Shown here one piece after another: positions 30,944 to 53,848 of a stretch of 64,000 nucleotides of DNA (its first letter is position 1; each line of letters opens with the position of its first letter). Where the stretch lies: contig JBKAGP010000001.1 in NCBI GenBank assembly GCA_046290465.1, forward strand, positions 3,632,270 through 3,696,269. The letters run 5' to 3'. Source of the stretch: Planctomycetota bacterium. Lineage in GTDB: Bacteria > Planctomycetota > UBA1135 > UBA2386. A program made the position numbers and the translations under genes. A model generated the notes under the pieces. It saw only the letters and a program-made list of their open reading frames with translations. It made no database searches and was not told the origin of the DNA.

Positions 30944-31015
30944 CGTTGCGTAGCTCAATGGTAGAGCACGGGACTGTTGATCCCGGGGTTACGGGTTCGA
31001 ATCCCGTCCAGCCGA
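30944..31015 (+). tRNA. tRNA-like element, Asn(GTT)-like, with non-pairing acceptor stem (possible pseudo-tRNA)
   Basis: Canonical D-arm TAGCTCAATGGTAGAGC, anticodon arm CGGGA-CTGTTGA-TCCCG and T-arm ACGGG-TTCGAAT-CCCGT. The 5' strand cgttgcg pairs with the 3' strand ccagccg at only 3-4 of 7 positions. Position 37 is G rather than A. Confidence 0.4.
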
Positions 31016-34032: not shown

Positions 34033-35124
34033 CTAGGGGGACGTTCGGTTTGCGGGCCGGCACGTCGACAACGCGTAGAGAACCACCAATGCGAGCAGGC
34101 TGACGACGGCGACCTTGCCGGCGAGGGCAGGGCCGCCAGCCGCGGCGGCCTTGGCCGGCGCTGCGGCGAGGCCGAGCGTGTGGGCCAGCGCACCGCCGGC
34201 CATCAGGCCCGCGACGCCGACGAACGCATCGCCGTTGCCTTCGCCGGTCAGCACGATCAGGCGCACCGGGCAGCCCCCGCAGAGCGCGCCGCACAGGCCG
34301 ACCAGCATCAATCCGAGCAGGTTCCAGAGCCAGACGCCGTGGGCGACCGGCGCGTCGAAGCCGAACGTGAAGCGACCGCCGACCAGGGCGACGAGCGCGT
34401 AGGTGCCGACCATCGCCCCCGCCGCGACCAGCATCGAACGGCGACCGCCGAACACCTGCCGCATCGCGGAGATGCCACAGAACCCGGTCGCCGACAGGAT
34501 CGCGCCGGCCACACCGCCGATCGCGAGCGCCCACAGCCACGGAGCATGGCCGGGCGGACCACCGACGCCGGGACCGGGGCCGGCGAGCACGTCCGTCGCC
34601 ACGAACACCACCAGCAGCCCGACGCACGCGATCGGACCGAGCAGCCCGACCCCGAGCGGCACTTCGTGGGTCTTCCCGATCGAGTAGCCGCGCGCCTCGA
34701 ACCCCATCGCGATCCGCACGCCGAGGCCGAAGCCCGGCAGCGCGAGCCAGGCGTTGAGGTCGCCGCCACCGAGCCGCTGGAACAGCCGGAACGGACAGCC
34801 GAGGAACACCAGCGCGCCGACGGCCATCGCCGCCGCCAGCAGGAACCGCGCCACCGCGTTGGATCCCGAGCGACCGACGTGGCGCCCGCTCACCAGACAG
34901 AACAACAGTGCGCCGAGCACGACGCCGGGCACCTCCGGCCGCAGGATCGATGGCCCTTGGTGCAGGCCGAGCGCACCGGCGACGTCACGTGCGAAGCAGG
35001 CACCGCACAGCCCCATGTTCCCCGGGTTGCCCAACAGCACGAGCGCCGCCGCGAGCGCGCCGACCACCGCCATCAGCAGGACGCCCGCGGTTCGGCGGGC
35101 CGGAGTCACTTCGCCACGTAGCAT
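34033..35124 (-). CDS. YeeE/YedE-family inner-membrane protein (putative sulfur- or selenium-compound transporter)
   Basis: Polytopic Gly/Ala-rich membrane protein whose two halves each carry a conserved Cys in a G..G.C context (NMGLCGAC.., LCGALCGGCPVRL). Start may be the internal ATG at 35073. Confidence 0.45.
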   Translation of the reverse strand: MLRGEVTPARRTAGVLLMAVVGALAAALVLLGNPGNMGLCGACFARDVAGALGLHQGPSILRPEVPGVVLGALLFCLVSGRHVGRSGSNAVARFLLAAAMAVGALVFLGCPFRLFQRLGGGDLNAWLALPGFGLGVRIAMGFEARGYSIGKTHEVPLGVGLLGPIACVGLLVVFVATDVLAGPGPGVGGPPGHAPWLWALAIGGVAGAILSATGFCGISAMRQVFGGRRSMLVAAGAMVGTYALVALVGGRFTFGFDAPVAHGVWLWNLLGLMLVGLCGALCGGCPVRLIVLTGEGNGDAFVGVAGLMAGGALAHTLGLAAAPAKAAAAGGPALAGKVAVVSLLALVVLYALSTCRPANRTSP

Positions 35125-36865: not shown

Positions 36866-37064
36866 ATGCACGATCGTGCACGCGAGCACTGCCACCGCCC
36901 GCCATGCCGTGGTCACGAGCACATGCATGCACGTTCGTGCATCCCAATGGCGAACGGCCCCCCAATCCAACGCGCCGGGGCCGCGATATGCATGTTCGTG
37001 CATTGCGTCTTGCGCTCAGGCCCCAGATCGCCGATCTTCCGCCATGACATGCACGATCATGCAT
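36866..37064 (+). promoter_or_regulatory. array of four 16-bp palindromic operators (consensus ATGCACGnnCGTGCAT) at an exact 61-bp period upstream of and overlapping the hipB start
   Basis: O1 36866-36881 atgcacgatcgtgcac. O2 36927-36942 atgcacgttcgtgcat. O3 36988-37003 atgcatgttcgtgcat. O4 37049-37064 atgcacgatcatgcat (overlaps the hipB ATG). The sequences between sites are unrelated. Confidence 0.7.
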
Positions 37065-37279
37065 TTCCACAATCGCTCGGCGAACGCCTCCGCCAACGCC
37101 GCGCCGAGCTCGGGCTGAAGCAGGTCGACCTCGCCGAGCTCGCCGGCTGCTCGACCCGCTTCGTGCACGCAGCGGAGGCCGGCAAGCCGACCCTCCGACT
37201 CGACAAGCTGCTGCAGCTGCTCGACGTGCTGGGCCTGCGGCTGGTCGTCGAGCCCGCGCACGGAGGCGATCCCCGATGA
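37049..37279 (+). CDS. hipB: HipB-like XRE-family HTH antitoxin
   Basis: 76 aa. HTH LRQRRAELGLKQVDLAELAGCSTRFVHAAEAGK. Stop overlaps the hipA ATG (ATGA). Confidence 0.75.
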   Translation: MHDHAFPQSLGERLRQRRAELGLKQVDLAELAGCSTRFVHAAEAGKPTLRLDKLLQLLDVLGLRLVVEPAHGGDPR

Positions 37280-38517
37280 ACGCCCCCGACTACCGGCGGG
37301 TCGCGGTCGGCGCCGTGCACAAGGCCGGCGAACCCGCCGCCCGCCTGACCCGCGAAGCCGACGGCGGGATCACGTTCTGCTACGAGCCCGGCTACCGCGG
37401 CCCCGCCGTCGCCACGTCCCTGCCGCTCGGCGCCGAGCCGGTGCGCACCGTCGGCGGCGCGCTGCCGCCGTTCTTCAGCGGCCTGCTGCCCGAGGGCCGG
37501 CGGCTGACCGCCATCCGCAGCGCGGTGAAGACCTCGGCCGACGACGAACTGTCGCTGCTGCTGGCGGTCGGCGCCGACGTCGTCGGCGACGTCCAGGTCC
37601 TGCCCGAAGGAACCTCCGCACCGCCCGACGAGCAGACCCAGCCCAAACGGCAGACCCAGGCCCACCAGCAGATCCAGGCCGTCGGCTCGTTCGCGGACGT
37701 GTCGTTCCGCGAAGTGTTCGAACGCGCAGTCGGCCCGGAGGCCGAAGACCGCACCGCGCTCGCAGGCGTGCAGGACAAGGTCTCCGGCCGGATGATCTCG
37801 CTACCGGTCGAACATCGCGACGCCGCCTGGATCCTCAAGCTCGATCCCCCCGAGTTTCCGCACCTGGTCGCCAACGAAGCGTTCTTCCTGGCGGCGGCGC
37901 GCGAGTCGGGGCTCACGGTCGCCGAGGCGCACGTCGTGCACGACCGCGACGGCGCACCGGGACTGCTCGTGCGTCGCTTCGACCGCGTGCCCGGCGACGA
38001 CGGCCGGACGCTCGAGCCGCGCGCCCAGGAGGACGCCTGCCAGGTGCTCGGCCGCTACCCCGCGGACAAGTATCGCCTGACCACCGAAGAACTGATCGCC
38101 GGCCTCGCCGCACGAACGGGCGCACCGATCGTGGCCGCACGCACGCTGCTGCAGCAGCTCGCGTTTGCCTACCTGAGCTGCAACGGCGACGCCCACGGCA
38201 AGAACTTCTCGATCGTGCACACCGGCACGGAATGGCGCGTCTCCCCGGCCTACGACCGGCCCTCGACCCATCCGTATCGCGACGTCACGATGGCGCTGCC
38301 GATCGCCGGCAAGGACCGCGAGGACATCGGCCGCGCCGACTTCGTGACGGCGGGCGAGGCCTGCGGCGTGCCCGCCCGCGCCACCGCGCGGATGCTGGAC
38401 CAACTGGTGAGCACGGCACCGCGCTGGCTCGAGCGACTGCACGAGCTGCCGTTCGACGGGCGTGCGGTGCACAAGCTCGAGAAGGCGTGTCGGTATCGGC
38501 TGGAGCGGTTGCGGTGA
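37276..38517 (+). CDS. hipA: HipA-family serine/threonine kinase toxin
   Basis: HipA C-terminal catalytic motif LSCNGDAHGKNFS plus an N-terminal HipA_N-like region. 413 aa. Confidence 0.85.
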   Translation: MNAPDYRRVAVGAVHKAGEPAARLTREADGGITFCYEPGYRGPAVATSLPLGAEPVRTVGGALPPFFSGLLPEGRRLTAIRSAVKTSADDELSLLLAVGADVVGDVQVLPEGTSAPPDEQTQPKRQTQAHQQIQAVGSFADVSFREVFERAVGPEAEDRTALAGVQDKVSGRMISLPVEHRDAAWILKLDPPEFPHLVANEAFFLAAARESGLTVAEAHVVHDRDGAPGLLVRRFDRVPGDDGRTLEPRAQEDACQVLGRYPADKYRLTTEELIAGLAARTGAPIVAARTLLQQLAFAYLSCNGDAHGKNFSIVHTGTEWRVSPAYDRPSTHPYRDVTMALPIAGKDREDIGRADFVTAGEACGVPARATARMLDQLVSTAPRWLERLHELPFDGRAVHKLEKACRYRLERLR

Positions 38518-40694: not shown

Positions 40695-41786
40695 ATGACC
40701 CACCACCTACTGCGATCCACTCTCGGCGCTGCCCTGCTCGCATCGCCACTCCTTGCCCAGCAGGATGCGCGCGACCTCCATCAGAAGCTCGTCGAAGAGC
40801 ACGTCGCAGCGAAGCTGGCACGTTCTGCCGAGTCGACGCGCATCCGGCAGTCCGCGGCCTACAGGCAAGCCGTCGAAACCGGCGACTTCGACGGCAGCCG
40901 CAAGCTCCTCGCGAAGCTGCCCGACACCGAAGCGGCCATGCGTCCCAGGTTCGAGGCTGCGCGCGCCAGGTTCAAAGGCACACCGGGCGAGGCCTGGTTC
41001 CTCGCCTGGCTGCTCGACAACGTCATGCCGCCGCGTGGCCAGCCAAGCCCGTATGCGCAGCAGCTGCTCGAGCGGCACGCGGACCACGAGATCTGGAAGA
41101 CCCTCGCGCCGAACGCCCGCTACTTCTTCGGCAAGGACCCGAGTGAGGCCCTCGCCACCCTGCTCGCCAAGACGCCGTTCGACGAAGTGCGGGTGTGGGT
41201 GCGCTACGGCCAGGCACGCACCAGGCTTCGCTCGAAGTCCACGAGCGAGGAACAACGAAAGCTCGCGCAAGCTGAGCTGGACCGCATCGTGCGCGAGCAC
41301 CCCGACAGCATCCCCGCGATGACGATCGCTGCGCCGCAGTTCCAGAAGGAGCACCTCCAGGTCGGCATGAAGGCGCCGGACATCGAGGGCGTCGACCTGG
41401 ACGGCAAGGCGTTTCGACTGACGGACTACCGCGGCAAGGTCGTGTTGCTCGACTTCTGGGGCGATTGGTGAGGCCCGTGCCGGGCCATGTACCCCCACGA
41501 GCGGTCGCTCGTGCAGAAGTGGAAGGACCAGCCGTTCGCCCTGATCGGCGTCAACTCGGATGCCAACCTCGCCTACGCCAAGGCTCGCGTTCGACAGGAG
41601 CAGATCAACTGGCGTTCGTTCTGGAACGGCCCGCTCGGGACGTCGGGACCGATCTCCAGCCGGTGGGGCGTGCGCGCCTGGCCGACGCTGTACGTCCTGG
41701 ATCACGAGGGAGTGATCCGGTCGATCGATCCACGCGGTGAGGCGTTGGATGATGTTCTGACGGAGCTGATCGGGCGGGCGCGTTAG
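40695..41786 (+). CDS. candidate selenoprotein: secreted TlpA/ResA-like thioredoxin-fold thiol-disulfide oxidoreductase with in-frame UGA (41469-41471) at the first redox-motif position (W-U-G-P-C), fused to an N-terminal helical domain
   Basis: ORF 40695..41471 ends ..VVLLDFWGDW-TGA. The same frame continues GPCRAMYPHE..ALIGVNSD..WPTLYVLDHEGVI.. to 41786. This matches the TlpA pattern LLDFWATWCGPC..P.L..G.SLD..WP.T.FLID..G.I exactly, with TGA in the Cys column. A hairpin cacgagc-GGUC-gctcgtg lies 27-44 nt downstream of the UGA. Confidence 0.6.
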
Positions 41787-52933: not shown

Positions 52934-53848
52934 TCAGGCGTCGGCGACCGGAAGGTCCCGAACCCCTTCGTTGCGGGCCTTCTGCGCGCTGCGCTCGTCC
53001 CAACTGCCGTGCAGGTCGTGGCCGAGGCGGCGCACCGCGATCAGTTCGGCGACGACGCTGACCGCGATCTCCTCGTGGGTCCGGCTGCCGAGATACGCCC
53101 CCATCGGCGTGCGCACCGAGTCGAGGAAGTCGTCGCCGACGCCCTGCTCGCGCAGGTGCTTCCACAAGAGCGCCTGCTTGGTCTTGCTGCCGATCATGCC
53201 GAGGAACCGCAGCCGGTCACCGCCGGCGAAGCGCTGCGCCAGCGCCGCGAGCACGACGCCGTCCTCCTTGTGGCCACGGGTCACGATGACCGCATAGCTG
53301 TTCTGGCGGATCGGCATCCGCGCGACCGCGTCCGGATAGGCGCCGCCGACCGTCGCGTGCGCCTCGGGGAAGCGTTCGCCGGTCGCGTAGTCCTCGCGGT
53401 CGTCGACGATGGTCGTGCGGAAGCCCGCCAGCGCGGCGACCTGGCACAGCGCCTTGCTGACGTGGCCGCCGCCGAAGATCCACAGCACAGGAGTCGTGAT
53501 CGGTTCCACGAAGATCGTCACCTCCCCGCCACACATCAGGCCGCTGTCCGGCGAGTCCTTCTCGGTAAGCCGGAACTGCAGCGACTGCGGCTTCTCGTCG
53601 GCGAGCACCTGCAGCGCCGCGTCGTAGACCTCGGCCTCGAGGCAGCCGCCGCCGACCGTGCCGAGGAACGTTCCGTCGGCCAACACCAGCAGCCGCATGG
53701 TCGCGCGGCCAGGGGTCGATCCACGCGTGCCGACGATGGTCGCGAGGGCGGCGGGAATGCCCTCGGCGCGCAGGCGCACGATCTCTTCGAAGATGTCGGG
53801 TTGGGCGGCCAAGGCGATCCAGACTAGGACGGAACGGCCCTCACGCAA
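52934..53848 (-). CDS. xdhC: XdhC/CoxI-family molybdoenzyme maturation (accessory) protein
   Basis: LATIVGTRGSTPGRATMRLLVLADG..GTVGGGCLE N-domain plus Rossmann-like C-domain (VLWIFGGGHVSKAL). Confidence 0.75.
   Translation of the reverse strand: MREGRSVLVWIALAAQPDIFEEIVRLRAEGIPAALATIVGTRGSTPGRATMRLLVLADGTFLGTVGGGCLEAEVYDAALQVLADEKPQSLQFRLTEKDSPDSGLMCGGEVTIFVEPITTPVLWIFGGGHVSKALCQVAALAGFRTTIVDDREDYATGERFPEAHATVGGAYPDAVARMPIRQNSYAVIVTRGHKEDGVVLAALAQRFAGGDRLRFLGMIGSKTKQALLWKHLREQGVGDDFLDSVRTPMGAYLGSRTHEEIAVSVVAELIAVRRLGHDLHGSWDERSAQKARNEGVRDLPVADA

Follow-up and report, generated by a model that had tools for sequence, protein, structure and literature searches.

Can a stop codon that falls exactly on the catalytic cysteine of a thioredoxin-fold gene encode selenocysteine (Sec)? 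This question is raised by a stretch of 64,000 nucleotides from a Planctomycetota bacterium (GenBank assembly GCA_046290465.1, contig JBKAGP010000001.1, positions 3,632,270 to 3,696,269), hereafter referred to as the window, in which an open reading frame (ORF) for a TlpA-like protein is interrupted by a TGA. An initial annotation, made from the sequence alone, had proposed that this UGA encodes Sec within a TlpA-like fold and that a hairpin with a GGUC loop acts as the selenocysteine insertion sequence (SECIS). Both a conserved UGA and a hairpin that is frozen across related genes support this proposal. We conclude that positions 40695..41786 of the forward strand are very probably one gene, encoding a secreted 363-residue TlpA/ResA-like thiol:disulfide oxidoreductase whose nucleophile is Sec (W-U-G-P-C). 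For the UGA at 41469 itself, the comparative data make Sec by far the likeliest meaning.

An in-frame UGA at the active site

The ORF is opened by ATG 40695 and closed by TGA 41469-41471, in the context ...GKVVLLDFWGDW-TGA-GPCRAMYPHERSLV.... Beyond this TGA, the same frame has 104 sense codons before a TAG at 41784-41786. Read through, the predicted selenoprotein coding sequence (40695..41786, + strand) thus comprises 363 codons and the TAG stop, with codon 259 being the one UGA for Sec. In the public record, MFN3242684.1 (from a Planctomycetota metagenome-assembled genome, MAG) is the 258-residue protein that ends at the UGA, and gene callers give a separate ORF of 99 residues downstream.

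The thioredoxin-fold (TlpA/ResA-like) catalytic domain (residues 223-343, 41361..41723, + strand) spans the UGA. When U is written as C, Pfam models match residues 222-344 above their cutoffs (AhpC-TSA 8e-18, Redoxin 1.7e-15 and Thioredoxin_8 6.6e-12), and the best relatives in the PDB are ResA (4nmu), DsbE (3gl3) and TlpA (1jfu), with E-values from 1e-17 to 1e-11. In these alignments, the TGA coincides with the leading Cys of the redox motif, which reads WCKPC in ResA 4nmu and WCGPC in DsbE 3gl3. The codon at 41469..41471 (+) would accordingly specify U259, the N-terminal nucleophile of U-G-P-C, and the TGC at 41478..41480 (+), located between the UGA and the next ATG, would specify C262, the resolving Cys of the UxxC motif. 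The cis-proline codon (P330 in W-P-T, 41682..41684, + strand) aligns with the P-T of ResA and DsbE and is conserved in homologues. Cys fills the UGA column in paralogues and in the solved ResA/DsbE structures; a Cys-type paralogue from the same genome (P0010, 367 residues) has the motif W-C-G-S-C. The initial annotation had placed the stop in the column of the first Cys and had noted that the frame stays open to 41786 and completes the fold; the structural and paralogue alignments agree with the former, and a Pfam domain that spans the stop agrees with the latter.

Upstream of the catalytic domain, the protein starts with a probable signal peptide of the general secretory type (residues 1-21, MTHHLLRSTLGAALLASPLLA|QQ, 40695..40757, + strand), composed of a basic n-region, a hydrophobic stretch at residues 5-15 and an A-Q-(Q/E) that is conserved in homologues, from which an extracytoplasmic location is probable. 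It is followed by an all-alpha domain (residues ~23-220, 40761..41354, + strand) of 11 helices, which resembles tetratricopeptide repeats (TPR) or an alpha-solenoid and matches no specific family. The AlphaFold model of the N-terminal part, obtained from the 258-residue ORF up to the UGA, is all-helical over ~220 residues with a predicted local distance difference test score (pLDDT) of 89.6, and bears out the N-terminal helical domain described initially.

Scores against NCBIfam models are far below the cutoffs for ResA (NF002854, 70.4 bits versus 170), for TlpA (NF047696, 47.3 versus 230) and for the WAxxUGC or ‘UGC-containing TlpA’ selenoprotein model (NF041054, 35.9 versus 300), and the window protein is therefore not an orthologue of any of the three. 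By these scores, we place it as a family-level relative of ResA and TlpA and assign the predicted W-U-G-P-C protein to a selenoprotein subfamily other than NF041054.

We scanned both strands of the window for in-frame TGAs with coding signal on both sides. Four candidates were found, and only the one at 41469-41471 has a recognisable protein on both sides of the TGA. A reassigned genetic code, with UGA as a sense codon, was considered and ruled out: TGA is the commonest ordinary stop in the window and ends 19 of the 30 domain-supported genes, so that UGA here means stop as a rule.

To place the gene among its relatives, the read-through protein was searched against a collection of 5.8 billion proteins. 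The five closest matches (57-100% identity) all end in ...DFWGDW after 246-258 residues, and more distant homologues are full-length with W-C-x-x-C. At the DNA level, the five closest orthologues carry TGA at that codon throughout, in different assemblies and different gene neighbourhoods, and 104-106 further codons are open past the TGA wherever the contig continues. Collection scans and two look-ups added L008, two adjacent genes in L020, L021, L043 and L044. This resulted in a set of 11 distinct TGA-bearing genes from Planctomycetota genomes and metagenomes, termed Sec-type genes in this study (the window gene, L002, L003, L004, L005, L008, L020a, L020b, L021, L043 and L044). All 11 have TGA at the identical column at ~30-79% protein identity, rather than frameshifts or scattered truncations. 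They sit in different genomic contexts, identity in their N-terminal halves goes down to ~30%, and in all readable cases 104-119 codons follow the TGA before the next stop.

The region past the TGA evolves as coding sequence. Among four true orthologues, the ratio of nonsynonymous to synonymous substitution rates (dN/dS) is 0.06-0.15 in the block ~50 codons past the TGA, where dS is ~1-2.8, indicating strong purifying selection on the downstream half and its translation in frame. We further aligned eight Sec-type genes over 30 codons either side of the TGA. In the five codons from the TGA to the next ATG, the changes are synonymous and the amino acids stay the same, with Pro written as CCA, CCC, CCG or CCT, and the codon for C262 is invariant in 8/8 genes.

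These data bear directly on the possibility that the gene is split in two as annotated. Translation would then stop at the UGA (41471) and restart at ATG 41487, giving a 258-residue helical protein and a 99-residue thioredoxin-fold remnant, two products that might bind one another. This is the form in which gene callers and the public record present it, an invariant ATG lies six codons past the UGA, and ORFs of ~100 residues without a partner are called in hundreds of metagenome contigs. However, full-length Cys-type proteins conserve this Met just as well, which makes it a family residue and no evidence of a start codon. The coding-like evolution of the short stretch from TGA to ATG, together with the invariant Cys codon within it, argues against termination and reinitiation at ATG 41487. 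Splitting would also delete both redox residues, sever strand beta-1 of the fold from helix alpha-1, and leave the frozen hairpin described below unexplained. We consider a split gene highly improbable.

Alternatively, a TGC-to-TGA nonsense change could have inactivated an ordinary TlpA paralogue, or the TGA could be a sequencing or assembly error. Planctomycetes have many TlpA paralogues, such that the loss of one would be tolerable, and a Cys paralogue is indeed present in the same genome. Against this stand the recurrence of the same TGA in independent assemblies (NCBI, Logan, JGI and ENA) and in 11 distinct genes, the strong purifying selection on the downstream part, and the lack of any frameshift or additional stop. 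The comparative data thus appear to refute a pseudogene or an error effectively, leaving either with next to no probability.

A GGUC hairpin downstream of the UGA

If the UGA is decoded as Sec, the putative SECIS lies at 41496..41513 (+), where a 7-bp stem (CACGAGC/GCUCGUG) closes a GGUC loop (41503-41506) within the codons for H-E-R-S-L-V. The hairpin begins 27 nt after the U of the UGA, the spacing from UGA to loop is 31 nt and the stem-loop energy is -11.2 kcal/mol. Published bacterial SECIS (bSECIS) elements are modelled with an apical loop of 3-9 nt having G in the loop's first two nucleotides, an upper stem of 4-16 bp, a distance of 16-37 nt from the UGA and a minimum free energy of ≤ -7.5 kcal/mol (PMC13188914). 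The window hairpin agrees with all four of these features, as do the hairpins in 7/8 Sec-type genes formally tested. In L043 and L044, all 18 nt of the hairpin are the same as in the window, and L008 keeps just a 4-bp core.

Conservation at the nucleotide level provides stronger evidence than agreement with the bSECIS model. In the eight-gene alignment, the longest invariant nucleotide run is CACGAGCGGTCGCTC, 15 nt at +27 to +41 from the UGA. More specifically, Arg, Ser and Leu in the hairpin are each written with a single one of their six codons in 8/8 genes, and another Ser column uses five codons. The 12-nt core GAGCGGTCGCTC (GAGC-GGUC-GCUC), which starts 30 nt after the UGA, does not differ between any of the Sec-type genes that extend that far (10/10). 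Within 466 kb of scanned DNA, no copy of this core lay outside this gene family or at another position in it (the cores of L043 and L044 were confirmed after that scan), and the window itself holds no further copies of it beyond chance. Two Cys forms lack the GGUC hairpin, namely P0010, with codons CAC CAC CGC GAG CTG GTG, and the Pirellulaceae form L007. The SECIS-like hairpin named in the initial annotation therefore fits the published model and coincides with the longest invariant run. A second, smaller hairpin (GGCCC-GTGCC-GGGCC) had also been pointed out immediately after the UGA. It is present at 41472-41486 but is not conserved in orthologues; we ruled it out as part of the SECIS and regard it as probably incidental.

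Several observations weigh against Sec decoding through this hairpin. The bSECIS criteria are loose at 70% GC, and a different hairpin in P0010 also passes. The folding energy of 41469-41530 is not unusual relative to shuffled sequences (z = -1.07), and the hairpin stands out through its conservation only. No Rfam family matches it, with permissive Rfam searches of 41440-41560 giving chance-level matches only. Because the hairpin does not vary, compensatory changes cannot be counted: there are zero, and its support is one of conservation, not covariation. With regard to the decoding machinery, ARAGORN and Rfam found no tRNA-Sec in the 64-kb window or in 20 fetched loci, Pfam and NCBIfam scans of ~50 window ORFs found no SelA, SelB, SelD or YedF, and the fetched loci contained no SelA, SelB or SelD either. 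Finally, the CGG-TCG-CTC core is kept in five Cys-type genes encoding HERSLV (L006, L036, L038, L040 and L041), and is therefore not strictly exclusive to UGA-bearing genes.

The five Cys-type genes carry synonymous changes that break stem pairs, GAG to GAA in 2/5 and GTG to GTC in 3/5, and neither change occurs in any Sec-type gene. In more distant Cys forms (L007, P0010 and others), both the HERSLV peptide and the hairpin are lost. For Sec-to-Cys conversion, ‘remnant SECIS-like structures’ have been reported downstream of Cys codons (PMC1794560), and the hairpin-bearing Cys-type relatives match this description. In a masked neighbor-joining tree, Sec and Cys forms are interleaved, with a clean split in 0/200 bootstraps, and the tree gives no direction for Sec/Cys conversion.

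Some relatives depart from the common architecture. In L006 (4732-10425, in the Planctomycetota MAG contig JBCBOT010000087), the Cys-type gene has an intact remnant hairpin and its frame is open for ~1,900 codons, reaching EF-hand-like and sulfatase-modifying-factor-like regions; it may encode a giant fusion protein. L022 (1-130 of Ga0114932_10121087) reads W-C-G-P-TGA-R-A-M-Y-P-HERSLV, with the TGA at the second redox position (CxxU), the same hairpin core 22 nt downstream of it and a frame that is open into a second, WCPPC thioredoxin domain. As a single example, this could be a genuine positional switch of Sec or an error. Two proteins of the same architecture, P0011 and P0015, have both redox residues replaced (W-S-G-A-S) and are presumably redox-inactive.

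Selenium context, decoding model and neighbouring genes

Six kb upstream of the selenoprotein gene, and separate from it, lies a gene for a putative selenium transporter of the YedE family (34033..35124, - strand). It matches NCBIfam TIGR04112 with an E-value of 2.4e-81 (273.5 bits versus a cutoff of 200, over 328 of 337 model positions), and its match to Pfam Sulf_transp is sub-threshold (18 bits versus 27). The initial annotation was right to list a YeeE/YedE gene here, but had implied the plus strand. The YedE family has been reported almost only in SelD-containing organisms (PMC5322559), and we take the gene as an indirect sign, from genomic context, that selenium is used. Some Planctomycetes are documented to have both a full selA/B/C/D set and candidate selenoproteins with a thioredoxin fold (PMC4807772).

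The UGA might still be read through without selenium, either by a suppressor or near-cognate tRNA for Trp or Cys or by a tRNA(Sec) wrongly charged with Cys, in which case the mature protein would carry Cys or Trp. SelA and SelD can make Cys-tRNA(Sec) when selenium is limiting, which lends this route some plausibility, as does the scope of the search for Sec machinery, which took in 64 kb of the source genome. However, SelB-dependent decoding is marked by just such an element, a frozen GGUC-loop hairpin at a constant distance from the UGA, and the YedE selenium marker is present. Furthermore, if Cys were intended, a change from TGA to TGC would be strongly favoured; it is seen in some relatives and not in these 11 genes. 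Selenium-free read-through is, in our view, very unlikely.

Sec insertion being the preferred reading, we infer a working model from the established bacterial mechanism of Sec decoding. As the ribosome reaches the UGA (41469-41471), SelB-GTP carrying Sec-tRNA(Sec) would bind the mRNA hairpin at 41496-41513 and deliver Sec in place of release-factor termination, after which 104 more codons would complete the thioredoxin fold. The protein would be exported by its N-terminal signal peptide. Outside the cytoplasm, U259 would attack a substrate disulfide to form a selenenylsulfide, C262 would resolve this bond, and a membrane electron shuttle of the CcdA/DsbD type would return the oxidised U-C pair to its reduced state. 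The TPR-like N-terminal helices probably form a scaffold that binds the substrate or a partner. SelB binding, selenium incorporation, export, substrate and reductant are all predictions of this model.

A broader view of the hairpin is also conceivable, in which the HERSLV-encoded GGUC element is more than a SECIS, or an unusually rigid one, and the hallmark of a very large, ancestrally Sec-containing Planctomycetota clade of secreted TlpA-like proteins. It would be frozen in hundreds of genes, persist in Cys-type descendants and serve UxxC as well as, in L022, CxxU. We find this idea unlikely. If it is true, the element would have to do something besides Sec insertion, for instance in translational pausing or regulation, or else be read by a SelB whose RNA specificity is exceptionally narrow.

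The genomic surroundings of Sec-type genes differ. In L043 (237-7202) and L044 (4051-9064), multihaem cytochrome c genes stand immediately upstream of the Sec-type gene, with Cytochrom_NNT, MtrC-like, Paired_CXXCH and TPR_CcmH_CycH domains encoded there; the window has no such neighbour. Cytochrome maturation is a known role for the TlpA-like family, and the arrangement in these two loci may reflect a part played in that process or in electron transfer. L020 (309-2271, Ga0302299_10002499) contains two adjacent Sec-type TlpA-like genes, with the putative Sec codons at 1353 and 1948, and the second has a short lipoprotein-like leader without the helical domain.

Within the window, two further loci were considered in connection with selenium. 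The segment at 30944-31015 (+) matches the Rfam tRNA model with 56 bits and is not called by ARAGORN. It was ruled out as tRNA-Sec by its anticodon, GUU (Asn), and its length of 72 nt. Its D, anticodon and T arms are intact and 3 of 7 acceptor stem pairs are mismatched; the segment may be a tRNA pseudogene or an integration-site remnant. A maturation factor of the XdhC family (52934-53848, - strand) was examined as a possible selenium-cofactor gene (YqeB) and ruled out as an ordinary XdhC; it scores below both NCBIfam XdhC cutoffs. The remaining surroundings include at least 11 paralogous PQQ_2/BamB-like beta-propeller genes in ~30 kb (681-30678, both strands), one of them with a peptidyl-prolyl isomerase (PPIase) domain, and a gene for a HipA-type toxin (37048-38517, + strand; HipA_C and Couple_hipA) preceded by a small helix-turn-helix gene, the two forming a toxin-antitoxin pair ~2 kb upstream of the selenoprotein gene.

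Distribution and relation to known selenoproteins

A search with the 99-residue downstream ORF gave 3,620 matches. The best 120 are nearly all orphan ORFs of ~100 residues, and 30 of the 31 sequences inspected start with M-(Y/F/I)-P-H-E-R-S-L-V. Judging by this shared start, these orphan ORFs are best explained as the second halves of mis-split Sec-type genes, and would represent a large, mostly unannotated clade. One ‘second-half’ fragment (P0201, 129 residues, from an ENA metagenome) ends in ...LVDFYADW, which points to tandem thioredoxin domains in one protein and to a second Sec codon.

The practical consequence is one of annotation. The public record cuts this enzyme at its active site. 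With hundreds of metagenomic ORFs apparently mis-split in the same way, Planctomycetota probably have more redox enzymes and selenoproteins than redox inventories and selenoproteome counts suggest. The window gene leaves the knowledge of Sec decoding and of Sec-using protein families unchanged. What it adds is a well-supported extracytoplasmic UxxC selenoprotein candidate with a conserved and easily searchable putative SECIS, in a phylum whose use of selenium is little studied.

Selenoproteins of the UxxC TlpA-like or ‘thiol-disulfide isomerase-like protein’ type (cd02966) were described from the Sargasso Sea (Zhang, Fomenko & Gladyshev 2005; PMC1088965), are listed in a 2026 review (PMC13188914), and come mainly from marine and environmental metagenomes. 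Compared by description rather than by sequence with this family (reference MGB1650493.1), the window protein shares a TlpA-like domain in which Sec is predicted to replace the first CxxC cysteine, a putative bacterial SECIS just past the Sec codon and Cys homologues that are widespread. As in the cd02966 UxxC definition, its U-G-P-C sits inside the Redoxin/AhpC-TSA domain. Members of this clade have a probable signal peptide, a TPR-like N-domain of ~200 residues and a near-invariant putative SECIS encoded by HERSLV, none of which was met in the accounts of the family consulted here. Related selenoproteins of the Prx-like and thiol:disulfide interchange types are also known in Deltaproteobacteria.

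Precedents from the same phylum are the planctomycete P1 candidates (PMC4807772, Table S9), named ‘thiol-disulfide isomerase-like thioredoxin’, ‘peroxiredoxin’ and ‘AhpC/TSA’, which similarly have an in-frame UGA and are annotated as two adjacent genes. By description, the window gene differs from the two P1 ‘thiol-disulfide isomerase-like’ genes, for which bSECISearch gave no SECIS, in that its hairpin passes the model.

With ResA, TlpA and CcmG (DsbE) (PDB 4nmu, 1st9, 1jfu and 3gl3), the window protein shares the fold, the W-C-x-P-C geometry, the cis-proline and, as predicted here, an extracytoplasmic location; in contrast, those proteins use Cys and have no helical N-domain. The reference points for the RNA element are E. 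coli fdhF and Moorella fdhA, in which a SelB-bound SECIS lies within the coding region, immediately 3' of the UGA, and has a G-G-U-C loop whose G and U are the SelB contacts. The window hairpin is likewise a stem-loop in coding sequence 3' of a UGA with GGUC at its apex, but differs in its tight 4-nt loop, in having no bulged U and in its greater distance from the UGA (31 nt, towards the top of the 16-37 nt range). Taken together, UxxC TlpA-like selenoproteins have already been described, Planctomycetes included, and the window gene is best filed as a further, mis-annotated member of this group.

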